Origin: Candidatus Nomurabacteria bacterium RIFCSPHIGHO2_01_FULL_37_25
GTDB lineage: Bacteria; Patescibacteriota; Minisyncoccia; Phycocordibacterales; UBA9973
NCBI GenBank assembly: GCA_001786765.1
Contig: MFTH01000010.1
Location: 34,105-98,104, forward strand
DNA length: 64,000 nucleotides
Reading direction: 5' to 3'
Below the pieces are notes generated by a model. It was not told the DNA's origin, did no database searches, and worked only from the letters and a program-made list of their open reading frames with translations. Position 1 is the first letter of the stretch. The number at the start of each line of letters is the position of its first letter. Positions 12,335 to 60,759 of the stretch are shown one piece after another. Both the position numbers and the translations under genes were made by a program.

Positions 12335-14752
12335 TTAATATCCTTTATTTTTTATCAAAAGCTCTAAAAATTCTTTTGGAAATATTGGTTTTTTTTCAGC
12401 TAATGCTTGATGATATAAAACCGTTGAAGGAGTAAGCCCCGGTAGAGTATTAATTTCAATTATTATAATATTGCCTGTTTTAATATGAACAAAGATGTCT
12501 ATTCTCGCATAACTCTTAACACCGACTCTCTCAGCAACCATTTCAATCAAACTTTTAACCTTATTTAAATTCTTTTCTGAAATAATTTCTTTAGGTGGTG
12601 GAGTAATGTTCACACCAGTACCTCCTTGAAATTTTTCTTCTACGCTTAATATCGTGTCTTCAGCAATGGTAATGGACGGTGAAAATGATCTGATTTTACC
12701 GTTCTCTTCAAAAACTCCAACTGTCATTTCCACATATCCGCTTTTAGGAATGTGTTTGATTTTGCCCCCATGCACTTTTAATTTATCCGTCTCAATAAAT
12801 GATTCAAAAATAATGTCTTGCACTTTTCCTTCAGGCATATCAATACTATTGATCTGATTTGTGAAAGTGTGTGGCTTGGCCACTTTAACTTTGTTTTTTA
12901 TTAAAGAAATATAAGTAGCCAAATCTTTTTTATTAAAAAGTCTAACCACGCCGGCTGAACAACCATCGCCCCTAGGTTTGCCAATAATCGTTTTTGTGCC
13001 AAATCTCTTTATAAGCATGTTCCAATGTGACTCTATGAGAGTATCATCCATATTGTTCGGAACATCATTTATCTTAAAAAGGGCATGCGAAGCAATGCTC
13101 ACATGTTCAATTTCTTCACTTTCTATTTTTTCATTTATCGCCCATTTATCCATACACAAATGAGAAGTAACGCTATCAGGTCCGTTGAAGATAACTTTTT
13201 TATCTTCTAAAATTTTCTGGATAGTGCCATCTTCACCTATCCCCCCATGTAAAGCTAAGAAAATAAATTTATGCTTTGTTATGACTTCATCCAAAGAATA
13301 TTTTTTAGGTATAAAAAAATCTTCAGTGGTGTCGGATTTTTCTAAACATAATTTTATTTTTATTTTTTCAATAAGATAAGAAAGCCTCTTAACATTTTTT
13401 TTCGCATTTTTAGCATTTTGAATTATTTCCTCAACAGTGTGATTGAGAATGTATGAGTAAGGAAGCTCCCAGACTTCTTTTTTTGGACCCAATAAATAAG
13501 GATAAGGTTTATAAATAAAAGAGCTACGTAATTTAAGCCAGACATTTGTGCCACTCATCAGTGAGACTTGCCTTTCGGCTGTTTCTCCGCCAAAAAGCAC
13601 TGCTAAAGGCTTGCGTTTTTTAGTAATAAAAATATTCTCGACAGATGTTTTAATTTTTCGACGTATAAACGCATTGTTCACAATATAGCGAAAAATATCT
13701 TGATGTGAAAAGCCAATTCTAGAGGATTGCTGAAACAAGAAACTATTCTGCTCCATACCAGAAATAGGATTAAAATCAGAAAACCAAATATTCCCGTCCG
13801 GCATTAAAAAACCATCAAAACGCGCGAAATCCCGCATACCAAAAACAGAAAATAATTGTTCTGCTTCAATTTGAATTTTTTCAATAATTTCGTTGCTAAA
13901 TCTCGGGGGACAATGATAAGTAACTTGATTGGTCGGCAGATATTTTTTACGAAAATCAAAAAATTGATTTTGATCATACTTCATTTCTACCTCTGAAGGT
14001 ATAAGAGCAACAGGCCTATTAAATTTGTTTTGTAATATAATTACGGTAAATTCTTTTCCATCAACAAAAGGCTCTATCACTACGCGAGTGTCTATACGCT
14101 TACTAAATAAACTTAAAGTCGCCTCAACTGCGTCTTTAATGTTCTCCACAGAGAAAACACCAATACTAGACCCACCAGAAGCTGGTTTTACTATTGCGCG
14201 ATTTATTTTTTCTTTTTTCCAGAATTTATTTACCTTGTTGATAATTTCTTTTTTAGTATCAGTAATTTTTATAACAATAGAATTCGGAGCATAAAAATGA
14301 AGTGAACGAAGATATTCATTTGCTTTATATTTATCAAAAGATATTTTGCAACTTTTTGATGAAGATCCGATAAATTGAATCCGATGTTTTTCTAAAAAAC
14401 TTTGAATCTCTCCGTCTTCACCAAATGATCCGTGAATACAAGGGAAAACAATATCAACACTTTTTAAAATACGAACAAGCGCTGATTCTTTTAGTTTGGA
14501 TTTATTGTCCAACTTAAAATCAAAATCGCTTGGAGTATTGGAATACAATTGAGCAATGGATATTTTATAAGGCTTTTTATGTTCATTGAAATAAATTGGA
14601 ACAATTGTCACATTTTGACTTCCCAGGTGATCTAAGACACTTCGAGCAGAGTTCATAGATATACCCCTCTCTAGCGATGGCCCACCACATAATACAGCTA
14701 CAGAAACTTTTTCATCTTTATTTTTTATGGATTTTTTATACATTTTTTGCAA
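12335..14752 (-). CDS. ddl: Tandem D-alanine--D-alanine ligase fusion (two complete Ddl/ATP-grasp modules in one 805-aa protein)
   Basis: Two Ddl N-domains (VAVLCGGPSLERGIS...; LAVLFGGETAERQVS...) and two HG.FGEDG motifs; adjacent to alr. Confidence 0.75.
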   Translation of the reverse strand: MQKMYKKSIKNKDEKVSVAVLCGGPSLERGISMNSARSVLDHLGSQNVTIVPIYFNEHKKPYKISIAQLYSNTPSDFDFKLDNKSKLKESALVRILKSVDIVFPCIHGSFGEDGEIQSFLEKHRIQFIGSSSKSCKISFDKYKANEYLRSLHFYAPNSIVIKITDTKKEIINKVNKFWKKEKINRAIVKPASGGSSIGVFSVENIKDAVEATLSLFSKRIDTRVVIEPFVDGKEFTVIILQNKFNRPVALIPSEVEMKYDQNQFFDFRKKYLPTNQVTYHCPPRFSNEIIEKIQIEAEQLFSVFGMRDFARFDGFLMPDGNIWFSDFNPISGMEQNSFLFQQSSRIGFSHQDIFRYIVNNAFIRRKIKTSVENIFITKKRKPLAVLFGGETAERQVSLMSGTNVWLKLRSSFIYKPYPYLLGPKKEVWELPYSYILNHTVEEIIQNAKNAKKNVKRLSYLIEKIKIKLCLEKSDTTEDFFIPKKYSLDEVITKHKFIFLALHGGIGEDGTIQKILEDKKVIFNGPDSVTSHLCMDKWAINEKIESEEIEHVSIASHALFKINDVPNNMDDTLIESHWNMLIKRFGTKTIIGKPRGDGCSAGVVRLFNKKDLATYISLIKNKVKVAKPHTFTNQINSIDMPEGKVQDIIFESFIETDKLKVHGGKIKHIPKSGYVEMTVGVFEENGKIRSFSPSITIAEDTILSVEEKFQGGTGVNITPPPKEIISEKNLNKVKSLIEMVAERVGVKSYARIDIFVHIKTGNIIIIEINTLPGLTPSTVLYHQALAEKKPIFPKEFLELLIKNKGY

Positions 14753-28370: not shown

Positions 28371-29336
28371 TTATTTCAGCATCTGTGTTATCAAAGAAAC
28401 CATCAAATCTTTTTTGTTGGGATTACTCTCAGCAATTAGAAGTGTGAGTGCTGTAAGCGCATTTGGATTTATTTTTCTTATGGTTTTTATTCTCGTCTTC
28501 TTTAGAAACCAAATAAAAGCAAAAGCGCCAGAGCGTTTGTTGCCATCTATAAACGGATGATTTTTTACCATAAAATACAGCAAATGCGCCGCCTTTTCTT
28601 CAATGGTTTTATAAACTGGATTTCCGTCAAATGCTTGCATTACATTACCAACTATCCCTTCAACGCTCCCCTTCTTTCTTTCTTGAGCAAAAATATCTGT
28701 CATGTCGCCAGTTTTCATTAATTCTTTGCGTAAATTCAAAATTCCATTCATCAATTCTTCACCATTCAACTTGATTGATTTTTTATTCACACCAATCGGG
28801 CTTAAAGTCTCTTTATCGTACGCATCAAGCGATACCCAAGTACTAGAAAATTCTTTAATTAATTCAATCACTGCTTTTGGGTCAAGTGTAATATGCTCTG
28901 GTAATAACATTTGAATATCACCCACCGACTTCATAAAGGCATCATAATTATTCCCAATTTGTTTGCGATTTATTGTATAACCTTTAACAATATGTTCACG
29001 AATAATTTTCGTAGCCCATTTACGAAATTCCATTGCGCGTTTTGAATTAGTTCTGTAACCAACGGCTAGGATAATATCAAGAGAATAAACATTCACTGGT
29101 TTATCTGAATTTGTAATGTGCATTTTTTGCACATTGCTTTTTCCATCAATTTCCCGATCTTTGAGAATGTTCTTTATATGTTTTGTAACAACGGAACGAT
29201 CGGTTTGAAAAGCTTTAGCAATTTGAGCTTGTGTGGCCCAAATTGTCTCTTTCTTAAAATCCCCCCGAAGTTCTATAGCTCCGTTTTTTGCTTGATAAAT
29301 TACAATATTATTTTGTATAATTTTCTTCTTCATCAC
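28371..29336 (-). CDS. RhuM-family virulence protein with C-terminal Fic/DOC domain
   Basis: RhuM N-domain (TQAQIAKAFQTDRSVVTKHIKNIL), Fic motif HPFIDGNKRSGAFAFIWFL. Confidence 0.75.
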   Translation of the reverse strand: MMKKKIIQNNIVIYQAKNGAIELRGDFKKETIWATQAQIAKAFQTDRSVVTKHIKNILKDREIDGKSNVQKMHITNSDKPVNVYSLDIILAVGYRTNSKRAMEFRKWATKIIREHIVKGYTINRKQIGNNYDAFMKSVGDIQMLLPEHITLDPKAVIELIKEFSSTWVSLDAYDKETLSPIGVNKKSIKLNGEELMNGILNLRKELMKTGDMTDIFAQERKKGSVEGIVGNVMQAFDGNPVYKTIEEKAAHLLYFMVKNHPFIDGNKRSGAFAFIWFLKKTRIKTIRKINPNALTALTLLIAESNPNKKDLMVSLITQMLK

Positions 29337-29549
29337 ATAATTTTTACCACATTAAATCATTACTGTAAATGCTTCATCTGGTGCATTCAACCACTATAAA
29401 ATCAAGAATTATGTGTGTAAAATCCATAGTTTTGTTGGGTGATGTTATCTTAACCTTTACGCGAAATTATTTCAAATAAGGTGAAGTGTTTTCTTCAGGG
29501 ATTGGTTTTTGGGCTGTATTTTGGTCATTGGGTATATTTTATATATTAT

Positions 29550-30398
29550 CTATTCACAAAACACCACTTCTTCTACGGGAATTTCTAATTGCTCCGCAAA
29601 CCAAGCTCTTGCCGTTTCCTGATCACCCAATGCATCAACCAATTTATTTTCAAGCGCAAGTGCGCCGGGCATTGAAGAACCATCAGCAAGTTTCGCAACT
29701 TGCTCAACTGGTAAATTTCTATTTTCCGCGACTTCTTTTATAAATTGCTCGTGATAGATTTTTAAATCGCGTTCAATCAAATCTCGCTCCGCAGGTGTAA
29801 GTGGCTTATCAGGATTTCCATAATCTTTAAATTTTGCGGATGCAAGCGAAACATATTGCAACCCTTCTTTAGTATTTTTGGCAGTATTTTCTAAATAAGA
29901 CAGGGTGATGCCGATACTTCCCACATCAGAAAGAGGAGAAGCGATTATTTTTTCAGCGCCTGTGGCTAAGAGATACGCGCCCGAAGTTCCCATTTCCCGT
30001 ATAAGAGCTACAACTGGTAATGAAGAATTTTTGAATCCATTTGCAATAATTTCTGAAGCAACTGGCGAACCACCACTAGAATCAATGCGAGCTAAAACAC
30101 CTAGGACATTCGGATCACTTTCAGCCCATCGAAGTGTATCCAGTGTATCGTCAGGATTCGTTGAAGGGGGCATTTCGTTTCCACTTCCGTCCTCATAAAC
30201 TCCAGCATAAGGGACAATATCTCCAGTTATTGGAATTACAGCAATGTTGCAAGAACCATCACTTATCATTGTGCTTGCGTTATATCCACTCCATTCGTCA
30301 TGCCATGAACCAAATATTCGAAGTCCAACAGCAAATACGACAATTATCGCTAAAGCCCATAGCGTAATTATTTTTAGTTGTGGCTTAATTGTTTCCAT
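29550..30398 (-). CDS. sppA: Signal peptide peptidase SppA (S49, 36K type)
   Basis: N-terminal TM, S49 catalytic-serine region (IASPLSDVGSIGI). Confidence 0.8.
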   Translation of the reverse strand: METIKPQLKIITLWALAIIVVFAVGLRIFGSWHDEWSGYNASTMISDGSCNIAVIPITGDIVPYAGVYEDGSGNEMPPSTNPDDTLDTLRWAESDPNVLGVLARIDSSGGSPVASEIIANGFKNSSLPVVALIREMGTSGAYLLATGAEKIIASPLSDVGSIGITLSYLENTAKNTKEGLQYVSLASAKFKDYGNPDKPLTPAERDLIERDLKIYHEQFIKEVAENRNLPVEQVAKLADGSSMPGALALENKLVDALGDQETARAWFAEQLEIPVEEVVFCE

Positions 30399-30705
30399 AA
30401 GGTTAATTTTAGCATTTTTAATGCTTACATAAAAGTTTGATTTAAAAAAGATACAATTTCTCTATATCATTATTTTTTCTTTCTGATATACTTTAGAAGT
30501 ACTTTTATGCTTTCTAAAACATCATTAATTTCTAAATTTTCAAAATTATTACTCACCATAGAATTTTTAGTGGCAATTTGCTTGACATTGCACCTGTGGG
30601 AAACTTTGACTTTTGAATTAAATTTTGTTAGTATTTAGGTAAGCAAGTAATTCCCCGAACGTGAGGCTCCGTATGGTTCCTCTATATAGCGTTCGGGGAT
30701 TTGCT

Positions 30706-31356
30706 TTATCCAAAAAGTGGATTTTCCTCAACAATATCAGATTTAATAATATTGTAATAACTCTCATCTCCATGTTCATATTTCCTAAATATCGCCCACG
30801 ACAACATATCAACAACCTGTAAGGCCTTTTCTTGTGTTGTAGATTTTATTTCAATATCTATATCAATTTTGTGATTATTTTTTGTCTGACTTTTTAGGTA
30901 AGTAGTGAAATTTTGATTCAAAAACTTGTTTGTCTCTCGTCGTGAAGCAATCAGAGAAATTTTCTCGTCAGTGGGAATAAGTTTTTTAGTATAAACACGA
31001 TCTAAAAGAATATTTGTGACATAATTATATAAAACCTGTTTCTCATCTTGTAGTTTTGTATATACTTTTTTCTTATTCAAATATATAACTAGAACATTTG
31101 ACATGTTTTTCTCTCTAAATAAATTCAGCAATTTTTGTCTTGTCTTTGGAGTTTCCTTGAAAGCATGCAAGACCCCGTTATGATTTTTGACTTCAGTTTT
31201 TGAAAAACCTTTAAAAATCTTTTTTACAATTCTTTCGATTAAAACCTTCTCTTTTACAAATAAAAAAGTGATAATAAAATATTTTGAAGTTTTTTTCTTC
31301 TTAAAATTAAAACCAAGATCCCCGCTTTCGTCTAGGAATATATACGCCATTGTCAA
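30706..31356 (-). CDS. DUF3800-family protein
   Basis: N-terminal IFLDESGDLGF motif characteristic of DUF3800. Confidence 0.6.
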   Translation of the reverse strand: MTMAYIFLDESGDLGFNFKKKKTSKYFIITFLFVKEKVLIERIVKKIFKGFSKTEVKNHNGVLHAFKETPKTRQKLLNLFREKNMSNVLVIYLNKKKVYTKLQDEKQVLYNYVTNILLDRVYTKKLIPTDEKISLIASRRETNKFLNQNFTTYLKSQTKNNHKIDIDIEIKSTTQEKALQVVDMLSWAIFRKYEHGDESYYNIIKSDIVEENPLFG

Positions 31357-31376
31357 ATATTTCTTGAAACTCTTTT

Positions 31377-31943
31377 TTAACTACCTATTTTTATTGATAA
31401 TATTTTTTCAAAAAAACTAATAATGGAATAAGTCATTAAACCAACAAAAAAATTTATAGATGGTAAGAGGTGGTAAAATAATATAGACTTAGGTTCAGAT
31501 ATATTTTCATTAAAAATTACAAATATCAACAACGATGAAAATAATATAAATATTGAATAAGAAAAATAGGCTAATTCTATGTCTTTCCCAGATTTTTCCT
31601 TAAAACCACTTGAAATAAAAATAAAATTACGAACAAGTAAACCAAGTAATCCTGTTGCTAAACTTAATACAAACCAGCCAATTAAGGTAAAATCAATAAT
31701 GAAATTCCAGGGACATAAAATAACTAATGCAAATAAAAATAAAGCGATAATTATACTAACTAACCATTTCGAAACTTTGTCACGCTCGGGCTTATAATCT
31801 TTTTTCTTATCCCAATTTTCGCACTGTTCTTTTATAAACTTCTTTATAGACTTTTCTTCGCCTTCAATTTCAATGATATTTTTGTTTTTATCTATCTTAA
31901 TTTTGGTCATATGTGTGCATAAATTTCTTTTAATATTTAACAA
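31377..31943 (-). CDS. Hypothetical 4-TM membrane protein
   Basis: Charged N-terminal region then four hydrophobic helices; co-operonic with the flanking genes. Confidence 0.45.
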   Translation of the reverse strand: MLNIKRNLCTHMTKIKIDKNKNIIEIEGEEKSIKKFIKEQCENWDKKKDYKPERDKVSKWLVSIIIALFLFALVILCPWNFIIDFTLIGWFVLSLATGLLGLLVRNFIFISSGFKEKSGKDIELAYFSYSIFILFSSLLIFVIFNENISEPKSILFYHLLPSINFFVGLMTYSIISFFEKILSIKIGS

Positions 31944-31949
31944 ACAATT

Positions 31950-34418
31950 CTATTTCAGCAGTTCGTATTCAAACAATTTTGGCTGGATTTTTGTTTCATA
32001 ATATTTATTAAGTTTTGTTTTTAAAGCTAATAGTTTTGTATTTAGTTGAGGATGATCATAAATTATTATTTCATTTTCATCTTTATGGTTAGTATTGAGC
32101 TCATTGTCTATTTGATATGTTCCATAAGTGTATTTGAAATTGTAATTTTTGATTTTCTTAGCCTCACTTAACACTTCCTTGAATGAAGCTAAAAGTTCTT
32201 TTTCTGATTCTAAAAGTTTAAATGATTTCAATTTTTCCGTGGCAACCGTTTTACCATCAAAACATAATTCATTTCGATAAAATCTGCCATCGGAACCATC
32301 GAATGATCTGCACTTATTGAAATAAGATAGACACGTATAAATTAAACAGGATTTTAGAAAATCCTTATCATACGTATAAGCACTGCCACCATCAGATGTC
32401 TTGAAAATGGTACCTTTCTCCCACCAACGACTACCTGAATCATATTTACCAGCCGCAAAAAGTGGTAACTTTTCTAAATAATTACCGGTATGTATATAAA
32501 AACCATGACCATCATACAATCCGCAACGAACCATTGTTGTTGCCAGTCTAGGATGATCAAACCCGAACTCTCTTGAAACTAAATAACCGAGTATGGATTT
32601 ATTGAAGATTGGTTTAATCGAGGCCTTAGTATACTGCTTTTGTGTTTCTCTCCCATCTAACTCAAGTAGAACTCCGACATCATCACTGTTTGTTGCTTCA
32701 TATTTATCATATAATTTACTAATAAGATTATGCGCTTTTTTTACTTTAACCTTATGTAGAGGTGAGATATTCAAAACATTGGTATTTGAGGTACCTTGTA
32801 TATCTATATCGTAAGCCATTAATATAAGTTCTTCCTTTTTCTCATCTAAGTTTTGCCATAAAATACAACTGATTGCCGATGGACCAGCATGAAAATGTAC
32901 ACGATTAAACAAGAATCCATCAATAAATTTATGATCTCCGAGACTAAGCGATTTCCAGTACTTGATAGGACTAAACAATATAAAATAATCATCTGTTTTA
33001 TTTAGATAATATTTATAAGCACTTGAAATAAAAAGATTGGATAAGTCATTTAGTGCTGGTCCTTTTAACTCTCCTCGCAATTGTTCTTTTACATAACTCG
33101 TATAACCCTTAGTTGCATTGGTATGGCTATTGCTTGCAGTATCACGAAATGGTGGATTTTCTAATAAAATAATATTAATTTTTTTATCTTTTACAAAATT
33201 ATTCAACTCAAAAATAGAGTTAATATACTCCTTACTCATTTTTATTTTTCCTTTGCCGAGTATAAATTGCTCACTCAGTGCATCACCCCCATTAACTAAG
33301 GCCTCCTTACCAGAAATTTCACCTGGAGGCGGAATAATCATTTTTACTTTGTTGCCGATGCGTTCATTTAAAACAACCCATTCTTTCAATTCATAGGTGT
33401 TAACAATGGCGTGAGATAATTCATTGTCAAAAATATAATCTCTGATTTTAGTTTTTGTTGGAAATTTTTCAAGGTATTTAAGAGTTATTTGATTAACATC
33501 ATCAAGTTTTAATCTTTTTAGTATGTGGGGGATAAAGTTTGCTTTTTCTGAAATATATTTTTCAATAAACTCATCTGATAAATATTTTTGCAATTCACCA
33601 ATAGTAATATCATTTACCTGTTTATCAGTTAAGAATTCCAAAAGATTGCCGGTTCCAGCGCAACGATCAAGAATAATATAATCATTACTTTTCGGAATCT
33701 GAGCAATAGCTTTACGCACAAGCTCAATGGCTTTTTTGCAGTAGCTAGGAGGCGTATAAAAAGCACCGAGCTCCTTGCGGTGCATCTTATCATTTAGAAG
33801 ATCCATTATATATTTAAAGTCTTTTTCTTCTCCTTTCCATGGATAAATGAACCTTTTAAAATATTTTGGCTCACGAAATTCTTCAAATAATTTAATCTTA
33901 GTGGCTTTAGGATTTTCAGAATAAAAACGATTGGACCAACCGACAACGTCATAGATATCGATAGTCACTTTAGTAAAATTGTTTGTTTGCACTAATTCAA
34001 TGATGCGTTGAATTCCGACTGGTTTATCGTATTTAATAACCTCCGGTTTTATTATTGTACTAAACTTATCATTGCCCTTACTAGCAGCGCCGATAAAAGG
34101 AGGACAGTTAATATATTTATTGGCAAAATCTTGAGACTTAAAGAGGTAGGCAATTTCTTGATTCAGATCTACTAATAAAATGTTTGCAGGAATACTAACA
34201 CCCTTGACACGCATATGGTTTAGATATTTTAGCGCTTGAAAAAGGGTGGTATTGATATTATTTATGTTAAGTTTAAATTCAAATATATTTCCATTATAGA
34301 TACCGTCAGTATTGTTGCTAAGTTCGGTATCTGTAATACCAAATTTACCAAAAAATTCAATTTGCCCTTCGCGCTCAGATAGAAAATTATTTACAGATTT
34401 AAATGTTTTTTTTATCAT
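31950..34418 (-). CDS. MmeI-like type IIG restriction-modification enzyme (N-terminal PD-(D/E)xK-like D-x8-EFK, gamma-class N6-adenine methyltransferase core, C-terminal TRD-like region)
   Basis: Motif X GAFYTP, motif I DRCAGTGNLL, motif IV LLENPPF; N-terminal DGIYNGNIFEFK resembles the MmeI D-x9-ExK nuclease motif. Confidence 0.65.
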   Translation of the reverse strand: MIKKTFKSVNNFLSEREGQIEFFGKFGITDTELSNNTDGIYNGNIFEFKLNINNINTTLFQALKYLNHMRVKGVSIPANILLVDLNQEIAYLFKSQDFANKYINCPPFIGAASKGNDKFSTIIKPEVIKYDKPVGIQRIIELVQTNNFTKVTIDIYDVVGWSNRFYSENPKATKIKLFEEFREPKYFKRFIYPWKGEEKDFKYIMDLLNDKMHRKELGAFYTPPSYCKKAIELVRKAIAQIPKSNDYIILDRCAGTGNLLEFLTDKQVNDITIGELQKYLSDEFIEKYISEKANFIPHILKRLKLDDVNQITLKYLEKFPTKTKIRDYIFDNELSHAIVNTYELKEWVVLNERIGNKVKMIIPPPGEISGKEALVNGGDALSEQFILGKGKIKMSKEYINSIFELNNFVKDKKINIILLENPPFRDTASNSHTNATKGYTSYVKEQLRGELKGPALNDLSNLFISSAYKYYLNKTDDYFILFSPIKYWKSLSLGDHKFIDGFLFNRVHFHAGPSAISCILWQNLDEKKEELILMAYDIDIQGTSNTNVLNISPLHKVKVKKAHNLISKLYDKYEATNSDDVGVLLELDGRETQKQYTKASIKPIFNKSILGYLVSREFGFDHPRLATTMVRCGLYDGHGFYIHTGNYLEKLPLFAAGKYDSGSRWWEKGTIFKTSDGGSAYTYDKDFLKSCLIYTCLSYFNKCRSFDGSDGRFYRNELCFDGKTVATEKLKSFKLLESEKELLASFKEVLSEAKKIKNYNFKYTYGTYQIDNELNTNHKDENEIIIYDHPQLNTKLLALKTKLNKYYETKIQPKLFEYELLK

Positions 34419-34524
34419 AAATTTATTTCAAAAGTTCATCCGCAGAAACCCCTAACGCTTTTGCTAATCTCATAAAAAAACGGATTCGTTTCATATTTTA
34501 CCCTAGTTTTTGATTCGTTCATAA

Positions 34525-35676
34525 TTATTTTTCGGCGCCACTAAACAAGCTAACATATTCATCATAAATATATGATTGACCATATTTCTTATCTTTATCT
34601 TTTGGAGTAAGAATCCCTATTTTTATAAATCTATCAATAACAGTCTGTGCTCCTGCGCGAGTAAACCCTGTCCATTTTTGAACGACAGTATTGTTTACGA
34701 TCGGTTGTCCGTAAAGTTTAGGTAAAACTTTAATGGCGCTTTCTGATGCTCGCTTACCCAATGTCTGTACTTTTCCCATATCCTGTTGGCGTAGCATGGT
34801 GATTTTGCCAACAATATCAATCGCCTCATTAGCAATCTCAATAACTCCATCAAGAAAAAAATCCACCCAATCAGACACAACCCCATGATGATAACCAAAA
34901 AGCTTCTCGTAATAGAGTTGCTGATGTTTCTTGAAGTAAGATGATAAGAAAAGTACCGGCTTCTCAAGAAATTTTTCTTTCCATAAATAGAAAGTGATGA
35001 GCATGCGACCCGTCCTGCCATTTCCATCAAGAAAAGGGTGGATTGTCTCAAATTGCGCGTGCAAAAGACCCGCCTTGATAACGGTCAAGGTCCCATCTTC
35101 ATCGTGCATATAATTCTCAAGATCGGTAAGCGCTTTATGCATCGCATCTACCGGAGGCGGTACAAATCGCGCGTTGTCGGGCCGAGTTCCTCCAATCCAG
35201 TTTTGAGTTTTACGAAACTCGCCAGGATCAGAAAAGTGAGTAGCTCTGGCTTTGTGCATCAATTTTTCGTGAAGTTCTCGGATGAACCGCAGAGTTAAGG
35301 GAAAGTCATCCGCCACTATGCGCTTCATTCCATAATTTAAAGCCTTAATGTAATGCAAAATATCATCAACATCTTCAGGAATGTTTGTATTGATTTTGAC
35401 TTCCGCCTCAATGGCATCAATCATCGTCGCCATAGTGCCCTCGATTTGGCTTGACGAGGCGGCGTCTTTGCGTAAGTACATAAGCAAGAAAAAATCAGCG
35501 TCAGGCAAAAGCTTGGTGATGCCATCTAATTTGCCAAGGAGCCGTGTTGCTTCGTTGTTTTTCTTAAGAATTTTTGAATCAAAATCAAAATTCTCTTTTG
35601 GCGGAAAAGGATTAGGAATAAAGGCTTTAAATCCTTCTTTTTGCTCTTTATTTATGCCAATTTGTATTGATTTCAT
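34525..35676 (-). CDS. Fic-family protein (AMPylator-type)
   Basis: HPFLDGNGRTGRMLITFYLW Fic motif, Fic_N region, C-terminal wHTH. Confidence 0.85.
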   Translation of the reverse strand: MKSIQIGINKEQKEGFKAFIPNPFPPKENFDFDSKILKKNNEATRLLGKLDGITKLLPDADFFLLMYLRKDAASSSQIEGTMATMIDAIEAEVKINTNIPEDVDDILHYIKALNYGMKRIVADDFPLTLRFIRELHEKLMHKARATHFSDPGEFRKTQNWIGGTRPDNARFVPPPVDAMHKALTDLENYMHDEDGTLTVIKAGLLHAQFETIHPFLDGNGRTGRMLITFYLWKEKFLEKPVLFLSSYFKKHQQLYYEKLFGYHHGVVSDWVDFFLDGVIEIANEAIDIVGKITMLRQQDMGKVQTLGKRASESAIKVLPKLYGQPIVNNTVVQKWTGFTRAGAQTVIDRFIKIGILTPKDKDKKYGQSYIYDEYVSLFSGAEK

Positions 35677-35712
35677 AAGGTTTGTTTCTATCTTTTTTAT
35701 AATGTATACAAC

Positions 35713-35860
35713 TTTGAATTACGAAACTCGTCGAAGGCATGTCTTTTTTAGGGGGTTTCGAGGCTGTCGAGCCGAGAACTTCAGGATTTTTTAAGCTTAA
35801 AAAAATCCGTACCCTAGAAAAAGACATGCCTAGAAAGAGTTTTGTAATTCATGATATACA
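35713..35860. mobile_element. MITE-like element copy 1 (~148 bp, 17-bp TIRs TTTGAATTACGAAACT / AGTTT[TC]GTAATTC[AA])
   Basis: TIRs flank a core with GGCTGTCGAGCCGAG and the perfect palindrome GGATTTTTTAAGCTTAAAAAAATCC. Confidence 0.75.
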
Positions 35861-35979
35861 AAGTATAGCAGTTTGTATCTTTTTGGTCAAGAGATGTATA
35901 CAAACCTACGATTCCCCACTAAACGCCTTATTCATCGTGAATTACCTCATTTTTCACTCGTTCCCTCTGAAGTTTCGAT

Positions 35980-36054
35980 TGGTGAGCGTGGATGGAATCG
36001 GACCATCGGCCTCTGTCTTATCAGGACAGCGTTCTACCACTGAACTACACGCTC
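35980..36054 (-). tRNA. tRNA-Ile(GAT) with atypical T-loop (TCCGATT), CCA encoded
   Basis: Reverse complement GAGCGTGTAGTTCAGTGGTAGAACGCTGTCCTGATAAGACAGAGGCCGATGGTCCGATTCCATCCACGCTCACCA; canonical cloverleaf but C at the usually invariant U55. Confidence 0.65.
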
Positions 36055-36082
36055 ATACTTAAATTTTAAAATGACACTGAAA

Positions 36083-36122
36083 GCCGACGATTCTGTCGGC
36101 TCCCCGACCAAATGCGTCGGGG
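36083..36122. repeat. Intergenic copy of the GC-rich double-hairpin element (family P2)
   Basis: GCCGACgattctGTCGGC and CCCCGACcaaatgcGTCGGGG. Confidence 0.65.
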
Positions 36123-36147
36123 CTACACGCTCAAAACTTGTGAATTA

Positions 36148-36300
36148 CGAAACTCGTCGAAGGCATGTCTTTTTTAGGGGGTTTCGAGGCTGTCGAGCCG
36201 AGAACTTCAGGATTTTTCAACCTGCCTGCCGGCAGGCAGGGCTTCGAAAAATCCGTATCCTAGAAAAAGACATGCCTAGAAAGAGTTTCGTAATTCAAAG
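36148..36300. mobile_element. MITE-like element copy 2 with nested CCTGCCTGCCGGCAGGCAGGG palindrome replacing the central AAGCTT hairpin
   Basis: Same TIRs and core as copy 1; 36221-36241 carries the P1 palindrome. Confidence 0.75.
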
Positions 36301-36335
36301 TCAAAACATAAACAAATATAACATAAACAAAACAA

Positions 36336-36365
36336 AAAACCACCCAAGGTGGTTTTTTGTTTAAT
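36336..36365. terminator. Bidirectional rho-independent terminator (AACCACCCAAGGTGGTT flanked by A and T runs)
   Basis: Perfect hairpin with poly-T on both strands, downstream of the RRM gene. Confidence 0.7.
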
Positions 36366-36404: not shown

Positions 36405-36725
36405 TTAGTATTCTCGGCGTCCACCTCCTCCCCCATAACCTCCTCGGTCATTGCCTCCACTTCTTGGTGGTCGAGCTTCCATAGGGCGAGCTTCATTGAC
36501 AGTAAGTTTACGTCCTTCGAATTCTTGGTCATTAAACATAGAGATAGCTTTTGTTGCTTCATCCTGTGTTGCCATTTCTACGAATCCAAAACCTTTTGAA
36601 CGACCAGACATCTTGTCCATAATAATCACAGCAGATACAACTGATCCTGCTTGCGCGAAGAGCTCTTTCAGAGCGTCTTCTTGAGTGCTGTAAGGGAGTC
36701 CCCCTACATATAGCTTTGTAGCCAT
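36405..36725 (-). CDS. RRM-domain RNA-binding protein with Gly/Arg-rich tail
   Basis: RNP-2 LYVGGL, RNP-1 KGFGFVEM, C-terminal RGGYGGGGG. Confidence 0.85.
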   Translation of the reverse strand: MATKLYVGGLPYSTQEDALKELFAQAGSVVSAVIIMDKMSGRSKGFGFVEMATQDEATKAISMFNDQEFEGRKLTVNEARPMEARPPRSGGNDRGGYGGGGGRREY

Positions 36726-37461: not shown

Positions 37462-37535
37462 GACTCAATAAATTTCTGAATTACTTTGAATTATATCACA
37501 CCCATCTATAAGGGATACTAAAAGATAAAGTGGAT
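37462..37535. promoter_or_regulatory. Repeated promoter/5'UTR cassette, copy A (GACTCAATAAATTTCTGAATTACTTTGAATTATA..CACAC..ATAAGGGATACTAAAAGATAAAGTG)
   Basis: ~75-bp near-identical copy at 38860-38934, partial copy at 38090-38127; contains TTGAAT..TATAAG promoter-like hexamers. Confidence 0.5.
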
Positions 37536-38859: not shown

Positions 38860-38934
38860 GACTCAATAAATTTCTGAATTACTTTGAATTATACCACACA
38901 CATCCATAAGGGATACTAAAAGATAAAGTGTATT
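38860..38934. promoter_or_regulatory. Repeated promoter/5'UTR cassette, copy B
   Basis: See 37462-37535. Confidence 0.5.
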
Positions 38935-39913
38935 ACTCGTCTTCCCCCACTAATCCAGAATCAAGTGTGGCAATGATCTCCCCCATGTCGCCTTCCATGA
39001 TTTTTGGCAAATTGTGCCAAGATTTTTTGATACGATGATCGGTCACACGATCTTGTGGAAAGTTATAGGTGCGAATTTTCTCTGATCTATCGCCAGTGCC
39101 TATTTGGTCTTTACGCTCTCCCGCATACTTTTTTGCTTCTTTTTCTTCTTCTAACTGCTGTAATTTCGCAGATAAAATTTGCATCGCTTTTTCACGATTT
39201 GCGAGCTGACTTCTTTGATTACTTGAACGCACATCAATGCCAGTAGGCTTATGAATTAACCGCACAGCTGTTTCAACTTTGTTCACATTTTGTCCGCCTT
39301 TTCCTCCTGAGCGAGAATATTCCATTTCCAGATCAGCCGGATTAATTTCAAAATTTACTTTTTTTCTAATTGGAAGCACCGCCACCGACGCAGTGGAAGT
39401 ATGCACTCGGCCATTTTTCTCCGTCGCAGGTATTCTCTGCACTCGATGCACGCCTTGCTCATAACGCATTTTTTTATACACATTGTTATTTTTGTCTTTG
39501 CCTTTAATTTCAAAACTCGCTTCTTTATAACCACTCAAGTCGCTTTTGGATTCATAATTTGTTTTCCATTCCCAATTTTCCATTTCAGAAAATTTTTCAT
39601 ACATATGCGCTAACTCCCAAGCAAATAAAGAGGCTTCATCTCCACCGGCTCCAGCTCTCACCTCAAGCACTATTTCATTTGAAAAATCTTCCTTTGCTTC
39701 TTCTTCTTTATCTTTATCTAAAATTTCTTGTATTTGTTTTTCTACTCCTTCTTTTTCCTCCTGAATTGATTTCAGTTCGGCTGCCGCCATTTCATGCAAA
39801 GTTTCATCACTTGCCAACATTTCTCGCACTTCAGATTCTTGACGTTCTAAACGCTGAAGCGACTCCGCAAGATAACTCGTACGGTGGTCTTTTTTTAATT
39901 CTTCAATATTCAT
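38933..39913 (-). CDS. prfA: Peptide chain release factor 1
   Basis: GGQ motif, PAT tripeptide (RF1 type). Confidence 0.93.
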
Positions 39914-54047: not shown

Positions 54048-54190
54048 GTTTGAATTACGAAACTCTTACTTGGCATATCTTTTTCTAGGGTACAGATTTT
54101 TTGAAGCTTAAAAAATCTTGAAGTTTGCTCGCCGTCGCTCGCAAAACCCCCTAAAAAAGACATGCCTGCGACAAGTTTCGTAATTCAAAG
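54048..54190. mobile_element. MITE-like element copy 3 (opposite orientation, ~85% identity to copy 1), followed by a degenerate partial copy at ~54205-54275
   Basis: Same 17-bp TIRs TTTGAATTACGAAACT...AGTTTCGTAATTCAAAG and AAGCTT-centred internal hairpin. Confidence 0.75.
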
Positions 54191-54337
54191 TTAATTAGTA
54201 TAAATTCCAAAAAAACTCGTCGCAGGTGTAGTTTTTGGTAGACATTGCGCAGGCTGACGAGCCGAGCATAGCAAATTTTCAGCAGAAAATTATGCGTGTC
54301 TAACAAAAATTATACCGAGAAAGAGTTTTTTTGGAAT

Positions 54338-55952: not shown

Positions 55953-56672
55953 ATGGAAACCAAGAAAAGACGGCGGAATCCCTGGGGCCCAGTTTTAAAA
56001 AATCCAAAGGCAACACAGGACACTGCAGTTGGGACTGCAGTTCCACCGCCACAGAAGAAACAAAAGATGGTGGAATGGCTGGTGGGGGGGATATTTATTT
56101 TTCTGGTCCTGGTATGCGGATTCTACTTTGAGTTCGCGTACCGAGTCCTGGCTGTAGTTGGGCTCGGGATCACCATGGCTGTACTCATGGTACAGTCTAT
56201 CTTCTCCGAGAAAGAGGTGAGTTTTTGGACCACCTTGGGAAAGGTTGTTGGAAACAACAACTGGATTTACTGGTGGATCTTCTTGTCTGGGATGGCTTGT
56301 CTCCTGATAGGATTTTTCTCAAACAACATTCCGAGAAAAATCTATACGGTGCTTGTCATAATAGACAATCCTGTAAGTCCCGGTAATTGGAGTAAGGCCG
56401 CAGAGAGTCTTACTCTAGAGGACCCTTTTAAAAACAACGACGACAACCCCTTCCTCGCAACAAACGAAGGAACTCAAGGCAGTTCCCTCTTCGCAGGAGA
56501 GGAGGCGAAATGGGGTTTCGCCGGTCTTCAATTCCTCTTGCTGGCTCTGCCAGCAAGGTTCGTCTCTTACTGGGACGAAATGAAGAGGAAGGCGAAAAAA
56601 AAGGAGAAGGGCCAGAGCTGGATTAGCTGGTTCTTCAGCCACGTCCTCTTTGAATTAATCTGGCCTGGGTAG
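55953..56672 (+). CDS. Hypothetical polytopic membrane protein (GC-rich island)
   Basis: GC-rich ORF with SD AAGGGAGAAGGAA before the ATG; several TM helices. Confidence 0.5.
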   Translation: METKKRRRNPWGPVLKNPKATQDTAVGTAVPPPQKKQKMVEWLVGGIFIFLVLVCGFYFEFAYRVLAVVGLGITMAVLMVQSIFSEKEVSFWTTLGKVVGNNNWIYWWIFLSGMACLLIGFFSNNIPRKIYTVLVIIDNPVSPGNWSKAAESLTLEDPFKNNDDNPFLATNEGTQGSSLFAGEEAKWGFAGLQFLLLALPARFVSYWDEMKRKAKKKEKGQSWISWFFSHVLFELIWPG

Positions 56673-56693
56673 GTAATAGAGGAGACCAAAAAT

Positions 56694-57206
56694 ATGCCGA
56701 GAATCTTCATAATGTTGGTGGTGTTGGTGCTTTCAATTTACTCTTTTGGATGCGGGGGGGAGAATAAGTATGAAAAGACCATAAGTTCTGCTGAAAAGCA
56801 GGACAGGGATAGCCCCCCTGCAAATTATGAAGAGGCGCAAAAACGCTTCAACCAAGTAGCCAAGTATCTTGACTACTTGGAGAAGCATCCGGAGAGTTCT
56901 TCCCCAGAACTCACAGCAAGGGCAAAGGCCCTGCTGGATAGCCGTAAAGCGGCGGCTATGGCTAAAGGATGGAATGTCGCCGCCGGAGCGCTAGAGAAGG
57001 TAGTGCAAAAGGCGAAGGAAGTGGCGAAGGAAGTGCTGGGCACCATTGGCGTCACAGACCTACCCAGCGCTGCCAAAAAGGTCGAGGAGGCAAGAGATTG
57101 GGTCCTTAGGGACCCGGAAAGAGAAGAACAGTTCTCCTGCAAGGATATCGACGGTAACCCCGTCGACGTCACGAAGGAAGGTTTTGCCCATCTCTGCGTA
57201 AGGTAG
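56694..57206 (+). CDS. Hypothetical lipoprotein (GC-rich island)
   Basis: Signal peptide with lipobox-like ...YSFGC, helical body. Confidence 0.5.
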   Translation: MPRIFIMLVVLVLSIYSFGCGGENKYEKTISSAEKQDRDSPPANYEEAQKRFNQVAKYLDYLEKHPESSSPELTARAKALLDSRKAAAMAKGWNVAAGALEKVVQKAKEVAKEVLGTIGVTDLPSAAKKVEEARDWVLRDPEREEQFSCKDIDGNPVDVTKEGFAHLCVR

Positions 57207-57264
57207 AAAGGAGGAAAAAACTTACGCAGGTGGGGAGGGTGCGCGACCCTATAACGCGCAAATT

Positions 57265-57298
57265 GGGCGGACTCAGAAATGAGTACCGCCCTTTTTTT
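57265..57298 (+). terminator. Rho-independent terminator
   Basis: GGGCGGactcagaaatgagtaCCGCCC plus TTTTTTT. Confidence 0.75.
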
Positions 57299-57350
57299 AT
57301 TTTAATATTATAAAATAAGGATAAAATAGCTTTTTTGTCAAGATTAAACC

Positions 57351-57556
57351 TTGACTTTTTCATTTTATTGTGCTATACTATAAAGGTAATCAGGTCTTTG
57401 AAAATATAATATGTTCTGAGTCATTCTTGAGCAGTTTGCCTATCAAGTAGCTAAAGAGATTTGGCTCTTTGCTTGGCAAACGAGCTCAAGGAATGGAAAC
57501 TTCTCTGGTGAAAGCCAGAGTACAAATGCGTCATCTTGACGCGAAAGGAGTCCACA
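57351..57556 (+). promoter_or_regulatory. Promoter (TTGACT-17-TATACT) plus ~170-nt structured leader, copy 2
   Basis: See copy 1; the ORF-track ORF 57469-57702 lies inside the leader and is probably not coding. Confidence 0.65.
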
Positions 57557-58654
57557 ATGTGGACATTGATTATTTTATTAGCGGCCAGTTACTGGGCATC
57601 CACTGGGATACCCGGGTGGCCGTTGTCAACATGGCAGACGTCCCTGGTGGCGGGAGCCCTATATGGGCTCTATCGACTGGCGTGCTGGATGCAGTGGATT
57701 GATGGTGGCCATCATACCACCACACCAGTTAGCACCGCCGCCGGACACAGTGGAGGAAGTGGTGGTATGTGGGGAGGGATACCAAAGCTAGGACTTTGGT
57801 ACGTTCTCACAACCGCCCTAATGATGATAGGTACATACATAGTCAACGTGCAAAACGTTGACATGTTTATGTATTTCATAACATTAGGGGGACGGTCGTG
57901 GATTTATCCTTTATCCACAACGGATGCTATCCTCTGGACGTCTACCCTGGCTCTCATGTCAGCGGTCGCCTGGCTAGCAGTGGAGGGGAGATGGCGACCG
58001 GCTGGATGGATATTCGGGATAACCTTTATAACTCTCCTTGTTTTTAGGGAGTTCGGTCCGTTCTTCGAGGCGATCCGGCCGATCCCGAGCTCCGGTCCTG
58101 TCACGCCGGGCATCGGCGAAAGTCAAGAGAGGGCGGACCTGAACGCCGCCCTAGTCAAGCGAGGAGCGCTCCCCGTAGCGGGGGAGGTGGTGGCCAAGTT
58201 TGGGTTCGGGGAGGTAGACCCAAAGGAAGGTTTCCTCCTCGGCCTGGTTTCCCGAGGGTGGGTGTGGTGGATGGGCGCACCCACCTACGACCCCAAGAAG
58301 GGGGCAGTCCTGGGGAGATTGTATCAGTTTTGGGAATGGGCGGCTGGAGAAAGCCCACTCCCATCTCGCGCGCCGGCGGTAGTGTTTTCCCCCACCCCTG
58401 CGCCGGCGGGACCGCTGAGAAGCTGTTCCGTCCCCTGCGAGATGTGGGTGGATTGGGAGGAGGACATCAAAACGGGTGGGCGAGACGTTTTGGTCCTCTT
58501 CCACGGAAAGGAGGAATGGTTCCGCCTTTCCGGAGGGAATGAAAAGGATATCCCCAGGGAGGTTTTCTCCCCCGGCAAGGCAAAGTTTGCTTTGCCGGAC
58601 GACGGCGACGACGCGTCGCCCATAATGGTAAAAATTTTCGCGGCGAAAAAATAA
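57557..58654 (+). CDS. Hypothetical polytopic membrane protein with Pro/Gly-rich C-terminal region (GC-rich island)
   Basis: ATG at 57557 preceded by AAAGGAG; ~8 TM helices; ORF-track start 57536 is a TTG upstream. Confidence 0.5.
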   Translation: MWTLIILLAASYWASTGIPGWPLSTWQTSLVAGALYGLYRLACWMQWIDGGHHTTTPVSTAAGHSGGSGGMWGGIPKLGLWYVLTTALMMIGTYIVNVQNVDMFMYFITLGGRSWIYPLSTTDAILWTSTLALMSAVAWLAVEGRWRPAGWIFGITFITLLVFREFGPFFEAIRPIPSSGPVTPGIGESQERADLNAALVKRGALPVAGEVVAKFGFGEVDPKEGFLLGLVSRGWVWWMGAPTYDPKKGAVLGRLYQFWEWAAGESPLPSRAPAVVFSPTPAPAGPLRSCSVPCEMWVDWEEDIKTGGRDVLVLFHGKEEWFRLSGGNEKDIPREVFSPGKAKFALPDDGDDASPIMVKIFAAKK

Positions 58655-59118: not shown

Positions 59119-59511
59119 CTAGAAAGGAGTGGTTGGAAAAGTGATAGTTTGAGGATTTGTATCAATTCCAAAAGTGTTTGTTAGAATCTTTACGAGTCCC
59201 CATACGGTAACAATAACAGCCAAGCCAATTATGCCAAATATTATTCTGTCTCGTCCTTTCTTTTTTGCTTCTGCATCATCTCCAATAACATAAGAAATTA
59301 CTCCCCATACAAAGTAAATGACCCCTAAGATAATTATAATAGGAACAATTTGAGTAAAAAGTTGAGCTATCTTACATAAGATAGCTTCAATTGTGCCTGT
59401 ACCCACACTAGCACAATTAGTAGAAGTACCCCCCGTCGTCACCTGCGCCAATGCCATAACAGGCGCTAGACCTAAAACAAAACCCGACAAAACAATTAAT
59501 TTCTTTTTCAT
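59119..59511 (-). CDS. TrbC/VirB2-like pilin-family protein (paralog 2, with signal peptide)
   Basis: Signal peptide, then IIILGVIYFVWGVISYVIGDDAEAKKKGRDRIIFGIIGLAVIVTVWGLV core. Confidence 0.55.
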   Translation of the reverse strand: MKKKLIVLSGFVLGLAPVMALAQVTTGGTSTNCASVGTGTIEAILCKIAQLFTQIVPIIIILGVIYFVWGVISYVIGDDAEAKKKGRDRIIFGIIGLAVIVTVWGLVKILTNTFGIDTNPQTITFPTTPF

Positions 59512-59622
59512 CCCGTTTAGAAATTATGATATCCGTACATTACCTTTAGGTATATAAAGAAACACAATTCTTACTTTTATAATTTCTCCCGTTTTCTAAA
59601 TTTCTAACGGGATTCAAAACGA
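59512..59622 (-). promoter_or_regulatory. 5' leader inverted repeat (CCCGTTAGAAATT...AATTTCTAAACGGG-ATG) of pilin paralog 2
   Basis: 13/14-bp arms enclosing ~80 nt; 3' arm abuts the ATG. Confidence 0.45.
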
Positions 59623-59726
59623 CTTTGATAATAATTAATAATACTTAATAAAGAACTACCATGCTATTGTACCACAAACAGTATCAAAAAAGAAAGCAAG
59701 CCCCGTCTGAATAAAGACGCTGAAAG

Positions 59727-60302
59727 TTATGGGGGTGGTGTCTTAACTTGTGGAATAAAACTAGTGTTAATCCCAAAGGTAGTACCTAGTATTTCAACCA
59801 ACCCCCAAACGGAAACCATCACCGTCAAAGCAATCAACCCCCAAAGCATAAATTGCTTGCCTTTTTGCTTTTTCGCCTCTTCGTCGCTTTTGATAACATA
59901 CTGCACCACACCCCAGACAAACATCACCATCGCTAAAGCGAAAATAAGAGGAATGATAGCGTTGTTAATAATGGTGGTGATATAACACACAAGGTCTTGA
60001 AATCTCGGATAGGGACCAAGAGTTTGGCAAGTGTCTATGGGCTCAAAGACGGGCCCAGTTGCATTTGTAAGCCCGAAAGTTTCAGCAATAATGCTTACAA
60101 GTCCCCATACAGACACAATAACAGTCAAGCCAATGATGCCATATATTATTCTATCTCTCCCTTTCTTTTTTGCTTCATCACCGCCCCCTATAACATACTG
60201 CACCACGCCCCAGACAAAATAGACCACTCCTAAAGCAACCAAAACAGGAATGATTGAACTAAGAATATTATACGCCTCAAATATTAAATCCTCTATGGTC
60301 AT
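59727..60302 (-). CDS. Tandem-duplicated TrbC/VirB2-like pilin-family protein (two complete core modules in one ORF)
   Basis: Two copies of ...LGVVYFVWGVVQYVIGGGDEAKKKGRDRIIYGIIGLTVIVSVWGLV... / ...LAMVMFVWGVVQYVIKSDEEAKKQKGKQFMLWGLIALTVMVSVWGLV... Confidence 0.55.
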   Translation of the reverse strand: MTIEDLIFEAYNILSSIIPVLVALGVVYFVWGVVQYVIGGGDEAKKKGRDRIIYGIIGLTVIVSVWGLVSIIAETFGLTNATGPVFEPIDTCQTLGPYPRFQDLVCYITTIINNAIIPLIFALAMVMFVWGVVQYVIKSDEEAKKQKGKQFMLWGLIALTVMVSVWGLVEILGTTFGINTSFIPQVKTPPP

Positions 60303-60320
60303 GATTTTAATTCTTAAATT

Positions 60321-60731: not shown

Positions 60732-60759
60732 ATTTAGATTACTTATATTATACATCATT

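Follow-up and report, generated by a model that had tools for sequence, protein, structure and literature searches.

A conserved tRNA-Ile(GAU) gene of Candidatus Nomurabacteria with a clade-typical C55 in its T-loop

The stretch of 64,000 nucleotides from Candidatus Nomurabacteria bacterium RIFCSPHIGHO2_01_FULL_37_25 analysed here (the window) carries, on its minus strand, a gene for tRNA-Ile(GAU) with C instead of U at position 55 of the T-loop. ARAGORN calls the gene cleanly, and its match to Rfam RF00005 covers the full model (positions 1–71) and scores 71.9 bits (E = 9.6e-14), where the gathering threshold is 29. It is the top-scoring of the window's three tRNAs by Rfam, tRNA-Trp reaching 66.5 and tRNA-Leu 61.0 bits. 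Read 5' to 3', its segments are GAGCGTG TA GTTC AGTGGTA GAAC G CTGTC CTGATAA GACAG AGGCC GATGG TCCGATT CCATC CACGCTC A CCA, and all four stems are completely paired. The cloverleaf, the GAT anticodon and the encoded CCA described in an earlier note on this DNA are borne out by the ARAGORN call and the full-length Rfam match, and its T-loop TCCGATT with C at position 55 by the Rfam alignment and direct reading; the strand, which it left unstated, is minus.

The T-loop consists of U54, C55, C56, G57, A58, U59 and U60. The tRNA is canonical at G18, G19, C56, U54/A58 and G53–C61, and C55 is its sole departure. The residues U8, A14, G18, G19, U33, G53, U54, C56, A58 and C61 are all present and are invariant across an alignment of 19 orthologous alleles, whereas U55, the TruB substrate and the partner of G18, is replaced by C. 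The isoacceptor features are also in place, with G34 A35 U36 followed by A37 A38 and with the discriminator A73; neither the CTGATAA loop nor A73 varies in any orthologue. The other tRNAs of the window have ordinary T-loops, UUCGAUU in tRNA-Leu(CAA) and UUCAAUU in tRNA-Trp(CCA). With the canonical bacterial tRNA-Ile(GAU) (RF00005; E. coli tRNA-Ile1 type), the gene shares the 7/4/5/5 cloverleaf, U8, A14, G18G19, U12–A23, U33, GAU with A37 A38, the 5-nt variable loop, G53–C61, U54, C56, A58 and A73. It differs in C55, and so in the lack of pseudouridine (Psi) at this position, in its short 7-nt D-loop, and in its placement by the RF1 gene, a gene for an RRM-domain protein and the atp operon rather than in an rRNA spacer. 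The 29–41 pair is G–C, the pair in E. coli tRNA-Ile being C–G.

The identical 75-nt gene is present in eight other assemblies of the same Candidatus Nomurabacteria species (from NCBI, ENA and JGI), and since these assemblies are independent, C55 cannot be put down to an error of sequencing or assembly. Exact matches to proteins of the window were found in Rifle-aquifer assemblies, including the NCBI metagenome-assembled genomes (MAGs) GCA_001786035.1 and GCA_001786875.1. The genome belongs to the candidate phyla radiation (CPR), or Patescibacteria.

Relatives of the locus were fetched with the RF1 protein of the window as query, which gave 80 species-representative Nomurabacteria/Paceibacteria MAGs with RF1 identities of 76–84%. 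ARAGORN identified a tRNA-Ile(GAT) gene in 58 of the 80 loci, usually 0.5–4 kb downstream of RF1, and most of the loci in which it was not found stop shortly past RF1. The gene order RF1 – RRM-domain protein – tRNA-Ile – atp operon is kept: the RRM gene occurs in 68 and atpB in 47 of the 80 loci, and the RRM protein shows 94–98% amino-acid identity in the best matches among the relatives. The earlier description of the tRNA gene as isolated and far from any rRNA operon holds within the 64 kb, where ARAGORN and Rfam find only three tRNAs and Rfam matches no rRNA; the label orphan is misleading, given this conserved neighbourhood. The RF1 of the window is short (326 aa) and scores 370.6 bits, just below the NCBIfam equivalog cut-off of 400; the same length is found clade-wide. 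The L31 gene directly precedes RF1 in the window.

No orthologue differs in the D arm, in the anticodon loop with GAU or at A73, and the 58 RF1-linked genes also share one anticodon stem. The variable parts are the acceptor stem (eight types) and the T stem (five types), which change almost solely by compensating double substitutions. Among the 19 distinct alleles, 99.5% of the alignment cells are paired and nine of the 21 pairs have changed in both partners. In 500 shuffles the observed values were never reached, and registers slid by 1–3 columns gave 30–51% pairing. Because the stems remain paired through compensatory changes and the shuffled and slid controls fall far lower, purifying selection acts strongly on the cloverleaf of this syntenic core gene and on the parts relevant to IleRS, namely the anticodon loop, the D arm and A73.

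Position 55 itself varies among the orthologues, in step with position 60. The T-loop is TCCGATT (C55, U60) in 38 of the 58 orthologues, TTCGATC (U55, C60) in 16 and TTCGATT (U55, U60) in four. With the window counted, C55 is thus the majority state (39 of 59 taxa, with U55 in the other 20), and the view of C55 as the oddity of a single gene does not hold. The acceptor stem, variable loop and T stem that accompany it form 11 different combinations, and several deep clades of the RF1 tree, a rough single-gene neighbour-joining tree, are uniformly C55. Fitch parsimony on this tree requires about 10 changes at position 55, while 1000 random relabellings all need at least 12 (mean 16.9). Since the switches are fewer than in any of the relabellings, a strong phylogenetic signal, C55 is an inherited, long-lived state that has switched several times. 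C55 is always accompanied by U60, and C55 with C60 never occurs among the 59 (Fisher p = 4e-11, ignoring phylogeny). Alleles that are alike in all else, GAGCGTG/AGGTC/GATGG for example, exist both as TCCGATT and as TTCGATC, with no intermediate.

The variation extends beyond these alleles. A related tRNA-Ile on the metagenome contig L020 (relatives' loci are given L numbers) has A55, in the T-loop TACGATT. The tRNA-Gln(UUG) has C55 (TCCGATT) in the Nomurabacteria locus L045 (18154-18225) and U55 (TTCGATT) in the window's own species (L104, 2296-2367). Since the tRNA-Ile orthologues alternate and tRNA-Gln also occurs with C55, flexibility at position 55 is a trait of the clade and not of a single gene. 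A separate tRNA-Ile-like gene in L021 (Ga0182028_1336166, 1321-1395, minus) has the acceptor and T stems of the window gene together with U55 and C60; an extra G gives it an 8-nt anticodon loop, in which ARAGORN reads a four-base anticodon 'gata', and its variable loop has an extra G too. A frameshift-type tRNA, a pseudogene and a sequencing error are all conceivable. Among metagenome contigs, a pattern search for the tRNA core gave L020 and L021 only, two loci that show variants but do not make a survey.

On this evidence, the gene is very probably a working housekeeping elongator tRNA-Ile(GAU) that reads AUU and AUC, its C55 being heritable, tolerated and typical of the clade. The suggestion of a functional, divergent tRNA is supported by the conservation of position and structure in 58 other species and by the compensatory substitutions. 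From established tRNA structure, C55 cannot accept the hydrogen bonds of G18 or donate the N3-H of the T-loop U-turn, and the tRNA would be able neither to receive Psi55 from TruB nor to make the standard G18–Psi55 contact. The elbow would presumably be held by the retained G19–C56, U54–A58 and G53–C61 pairs and by the stacking of G18, which would be sufficient in these organisms.

A different role for the gene would be conceivable if a canonical U55 copy elsewhere, for instance in an rRNA spacer, did the bulk of translation, and the C55 isodecoder, poorly competent for EF-Tu and the ribosome, served regulation or aminoacyl transfer. There is a precedent for elbow-deviant bacterial tRNAs outside translation: the staphylococcal non-proteinogenic tRNA-Gly species, donors for the cell-wall pentaglycine, lack G18/G19 and U55/C56, exist beside canonical isoacceptors and are kept off the ribosome (S. 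aureus; PMC4574755). They resemble the present tRNA in being bacterial and naturally deviant at elbow nucleotides. However, the Nomurabacteria tRNA-Ile is altered at position 55 only and keeps G18, G19 and C56, and its U55 and C55 forms are alleles of one gene. Because these forms are orthologous, occupying one locus and not differing in their D and anticodon arms, they most simply share one job. The pairs of the T and acceptor stems are, moreover, maintained through compensation, and no second tRNA-Ile(GAU) was found in about 84 kb of this genome, a span in which no rRNA operon was seen. CPR genomes are small and their tRNAs usually single-copy, which also speaks against a specialised copy. 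We therefore regard the reading as a specialised or second copy as improbable.

The housekeeping reading also bears comparison with another functional tRNA that has C55. In the tRNA-Pyl of Desulfitobacterium hafniense, C55 takes part in a non-standard D-loop/T-loop contact (PMC7609411). The core of that tRNA is remodelled, with a small D-loop, with G8 and without G18G19, whereas the Nomurabacteria tRNA-Ile is otherwise fully canonical.

The C could also be edited after transcription, with C-to-U deamination restoring U55 and then Psi55. Such editing has a precedent in the conversion of C8 to U8 by CDAT8 in Methanopyrus kandleri, and the free alternation of C and U at position 55, with A or G almost never seen (the single A55 of L020), is what would be expected of an editable C. 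Ordinary mutation, however, explains this transition bias equally well, and the strict linkage of C55 to U60 suggests that selection sees the C itself. No deaminase candidate was seen adjoining the tRNA gene, and to our knowledge no such C-to-U tRNA editing has been described in bacteria. We consider editing highly unlikely.

A comparison of 59 upstream regions revealed a standard layout, in which the terminator of the RRM gene is followed by TTTGC-N17-TG(T/A)TATAGT or TGTTATATT, then by 8–12 nt, and then by the tRNA. This motif, which we take as the predicted promoter element of the clade's tRNA-Ile, has the –10 part TTTG(T/A)TATAGT or TGTTATATT at 8–12 nt from the tRNA or from the remnant described below. 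It emerged only from the orthologue comparison; a generic sigma-70 scan did not flag it and detected no promoter immediately ahead of the window gene. In about one-third of the species, the promoter is followed by a 5' remnant of an older tRNA-Ile that precedes the intact gene. These remnants cover positions 1–16, often with 18–29 or 18–36, have a GC-rich hairpin in place of the D-loop, and are followed by a 6–46 nt spacer. In the window, the remnant pieces GAGCGTGTAG (36132-36123) and TTCAGTG (36081-36075) correspond to tRNA positions 1–17 and are split by two GC-rich hairpins, CCCCGACGCATTTGGTCGGGG and AGCCGACAGAATCGTCGGCT, at 36122-36082; L043 and L091 have this remnant too, hairpins included. 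Remnants occur in L025, L028, L030, L033, L037, L043, L044, L047, L061, L078, L086, L088, L089, L091, L092 and L095 besides the window. Their hairpins fall into several families, one of which can be common to species distant on the RF1 tree. The idea that the hairpins are abundant repeats of the repetitive extragenic palindrome (REP) type was unsupported, with one or two copies in the window and few in the relatives.

The window has an additional insertion. On the minus strand, the order is terminator, TGTTATATT, copy 2 of a palindromic repeat, GAGCGTGTAG, the two hairpins, TTCAGTG, the 20-nt spacer and the tRNA. The repeat resembles the bacterial miniature inverted-repeat transposable elements (MITEs) in its terminal inverted repeats of roughly 35–40 nt (34–38 nt by the repeat search), its 7-bp target-site duplications (in two of three copies), the absence of an open reading frame, its occurrence in at least three copies in 64 kb, and its fold into a long hairpin; copy 2 forms a single one of –49.2 kcal/mol (z = –10.8). 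It differs in that no parent insertion sequence was identified for the window element. Deleting copy 2 together with one copy of its duplication restores a distance of 12 nt from the –10 element to GAGCGTGTAG, as in the relatives, which indicates that the element inserted between the conserved promoter and the remnant. The earlier note's repeat-rich spacer is thereby substantiated, two copies of this 143–163 nt element flanking the tRNA gene. A further copy lies in L014 and more in other relatives. Scanning the spacer against Rfam gave nothing credible besides the tRNA, the MITE-like element having no Rfam family.

The only transposase of the window is a Y1 (IS200-like, PF01797) enzyme encoded at 63243-63869 on the plus strand, with a small methyltransferase gene on either side. 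A domesticated transposase of the RAYT type is one possibility. Y1 transposases are not known to generate target duplications, and since the MITE-like elements carry 7-bp duplications, this enzyme is unlikely to mobilise them. A 74-nt intergenic repeat, brought out by the comparison with L014, has two copies about 95% alike at 37462-37535 and 38860-38933, one just past RF1 and the other shortly upstream of the gene for a 158-aa protein. Homologues of this 158-aa protein on longer contigs (P0006, P0010) were considered and are not syntenic with the window.

The insertions bear on how the elongator tRNA would be expressed. Transcription would most likely start at the extended –10 element of the clade and read through a leader of about 250 nt containing MITE copy 2 and the hairpin-interrupted remnant; RNase P would then free the mature 5' end, the 3' CCA being already encoded. 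The nearer –10-like TAAAAT may serve as an alternative start. The flanking repeats and the block of accessory genes that begins with a Fic gene are later insertions at an insertion-prone locus, outside the function of the tRNA.

The same insertions could be read as signs of decay, the gene being a pseudogene disabled by C55 and severed from its promoter. C55 does break a near-universal rule, MITE copy 2 and the remnant do stand between the gene and the conserved promoter, and true pseudo-copies exist at this locus in relatives (L020, 364-432; L061, 4872-4945; fragments in L081). These pseudo-copies are different in kind, however, being truncated, deleted or interrupted by hairpins, while the stems of the present gene are all intact and covary. 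C55 is the majority state among the 59 species and is fixed in deep clades, and the codons to be read are abundant: in 39 genes of the window, AUU ranks third among all codons by use (43.7 per 1000), and together with AUC it accounts for 5.6% of codons. A pseudogene thus appears very unlikely, and the pseudo-tRNA of the earlier proposal was rejected on the conservation in 58 species and the compensatory stem changes.

Several points nevertheless weigh against a housekeeping tRNA. The leader of about 250 nt between the conserved promoter and the gene is highly structured, including a terminator-like hairpin at 36104-36079, and could lower the expression of the tRNA. A second, canonical tRNA-Ile(GAU) is possible beyond the roughly 84 kb scanned, for example in the 16S–23S spacer. 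Conservation is the single line of evidence from which we infer the tolerance of C55, and U55 is regarded as nearly universal and functionally important (reviews PMC7609411, PMC1616971).

Downstream of the tRNA gene, a lineage-specific block of accessory genes separates it from the conserved atp operon (Table 1). It comprises a Fic gene (34525-35676), genes for proteins of 822 aa and 188 aa of unknown function, a DUF3800 gene, an S49 peptidase gene and a RhuM/Fic gene (28371-29336). By tblastn, the block proteins are absent from the loci of the 80 relatives, save for a RhuM/Fic homologue in four.

Table 1. Positions of the tRNA-Ile(GAU) gene and neighbouring features in the window
Feature	Position	Strand	Remarks
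tRNA-Ile(GAU) gene	35980..36054	minus	75 nt = 72 + encoded CCA; ARAGORN and Rfam RF00005
CCA of tRNA-Ile	35980-35982	minus	encoded in the gene
Anticodon GAT of tRNA-Ile	36022-36020	minus	
T-loop UCCGAUU	35996..36002	minus	C55 = 36001 (G on the plus strand), U60 = 35996; Rfam alignment and direct reading
AT-rich spacer, 20 nt	36055..36074	minus	–10-like TAAAAT at 36068-36063; direct reading
Remnant of the 5' part of an older tRNA-Ile	36075..36132	minus	blastn-short match to tRNA positions 1-10
Extended –10-like motif TGTTATATT, conserved tRNA-Ile promoter element of the clade (predicted)	36315..36323	minus	orthologue comparison
Terminator-like hairpin after the RRM gene	36330..36362	minus	15-bp stem; terminator scan; same arrangement in relatives
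RRM_1 RNA-binding protein gene	36405..36725	minus	106 aa; Pfam RRM_1, E = 1.2e-22; conserved upstream neighbour
Peptide chain release factor 1 (RF1) gene	38933..39913	minus	NCBIfam, Pfam; synteny anchor
MITE-like element, copy 1	35712..35854	.	143 nt; target-site duplication TATACAA at 35705-35711 and 35855-35861; between the tRNA and the Fic gene
MITE-like element, copy 2	36138..36300	.	163 nt; target-site duplication TCAAAAC at 36131-36137 and 36301-36307 (GTTTTGA on minus); repeat search, blastn
MITE-like element, copy 3	54049..54191	.	dispersed family; no clear target-site duplication
Lineage-specific accessory block	28371..35676	minus	7.3 kb, 3' of the tRNA; Pfam, NCBIfam; conserved atp operon beyond

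This block, lying directly 3' of the gene, raises the question of whether the tRNA sequence is kept primarily as an attachment site for mobile elements. Two relatives could be taken in the same sense. In L020 (Ga0076126_128), tRNA-Ile(GAT) copies at 364-432 and 4915-4989 bracket a defence-type islet of 4.5 kb with genes for an NOV_C nuclease-like protein, Vsr, a C5 DNA methylase and a protein with HATPase_c_3 and Hypoth_Ymh domains; the upstream copy is a pseudo-copy with a 6-nt deletion and C55, and the downstream copy is intact, with A55. In L081 (JBAZSZ010000001.1), a 159-nt segment with a complete GTGTCTG-type tRNA-Ile(GAT) (tRNA at 11926-11998) is nested in the anticodon loop of a GAGCGTG-type tRNA-Ile (…CCTGATA / ATAAGACAG…), with ATA duplicated; the arrangement reaches from about 160 nt before the nested tRNA to about 155 nt beyond it, and another hairpin-bearing 5' fragment lies upstream and adjoins the promoter. 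However, the window has no repeat of the 3' part of the tRNA (blastn-short over the 64 kb returned only the 10-nt copy of the 5' end upstream), Pfam and NCBIfam identified no tyrosine or serine recombinase or integrase among the block proteins, and the gene is kept even in loci without an island. Copies of the tRNA 3' end within 1.5 kb on either side were found in L081 alone among all the relatives. An integrase-type island at attB is therefore not demonstrated: the content is lineage-specific, and the 3' repeat and the recombinase are absent. We consider it extremely unlikely that the gene is primarily an attachment site.

The locus, as distinct from the gene, is a hotspot for allele replacement and accessory-gene gain. 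The earlier suggestion of an integration target accordingly fails for the gene itself, with neither a 3' duplicate nor an integrase, and stands for the locus, with its MITEs, remnants, accessory blocks and the L020 islet. Like the island hotspots known at tRNA genes, with attB in the anticodon loop or T-loop, it adjoins accessory and defence genes and has partial tRNA copies in relatives, with an anticodon-loop split in L081. In contrast to them, the remnants are mostly 5' parts between the promoter and the intact gene, often 6–46 nt away from the latter, and the window lacks an integrase and a 3'-end direct repeat. L014 (ERZ27254842 k141_2016637) matches the window at 98.5% identity as far as the RRM stop codon (about position 2640) and at about 71% thereafter; downstream, two response regulators stand in the place of the block, and its tRNA-Ile is a U55 allele that L049 has in identical form. 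The switch reflects either genuine recombination at this point or a chimeric assembly at the highly conserved RRM gene. In L092, the acceptor stem of the tRNA-Ile is chimeric.

A broader proposal, possible in our view though rather doubtful, is that Nomurabacteria, and perhaps the wider CPR, no longer require U55/Psi55. Essential elongators, tRNA-Ile(GAU) and in at least one species tRNA-Gln(UUG), would switch between U55 and C55, with C55–U60 as an alternative solution for the T-loop/D-loop contact, which might go with a TruB that is lost or changed in specificity, or with C55 editing. Under the same proposal, the resident tRNA-Ile would be repeatedly overwritten by incoming alleles that land inside or beside it and leave promoter-proximal 5' remnants, a turnover undescribed for bacteria. 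A tblastn search for TruB gave no hit in 1.6 Mb of fetched sequence, a result that is uninformative given the small sample.

The finding is a clade-typical C55 T-loop in a conserved, apparently essential and otherwise canonical elongator tRNA that is polymorphic at this position among orthologues. Full-text searches, with incomplete coverage, found no published account of C55/U55 variants in CPR or other bacterial tRNAs, and tRNA databases may hold such variants. A 2025 preprint on the tRNA genes of Patescibacteria is concerned with group I introns and says nothing of T-loops.

By the textbook view, nearly all cytoplasmic tRNAs have U55 as Psi55 in contact with G18, and few tRNA modification enzymes are as conserved as TruB, which makes Psi55. 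The C55 clade therefore offers a natural experiment on the weight of the elbow contact and of Psi55, and on the chaperone role of TruB without a modifiable substrate, and the linkage between positions 55 and 60 suggests a testable structural tie between the two. For annotation, C55 tRNA genes of CPR genomes should not be marked as pseudogenes. Repeated replacement of tRNA alleles, insertion of MITEs and gain of accessory genes are also on record here, at a single site of very small genomes.

The rest of the window is rich in core bacterial genes. These include topoisomerase I, RelA/SpoT, ParB, MiaA, Alr, Ddl, RRF, MreB and the atp operon, together with RF1, L25, RNase R, SMC, RNase III, NusB and ThrRS. 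A phage origin of the region was rejected, with no megablast match in a phage collection and with core genes such as L25, RNase R, RF1, the atp operon and ThrRS present; the tRNA-Ile itself matches a single phage tRNA-Ile, weakly and in part, and nothing in plasmids. At 55953-58654 and 59119-61170 lie a segment with a GC content of 45–48% against about 35% elsewhere, which encodes three proteins without a Pfam match (239, 170 and 372 aa), and, beside it, five tandem small genes with the Pfam label T4SS_pilin (PF18895). At 12335-14752 on the minus strand, beside the alanine racemase gene, an 805-aa open reading frame contains two complete D-Ala-D-Ala ligase modules, with N and C domains twice, as a tandem or fused Ddl.

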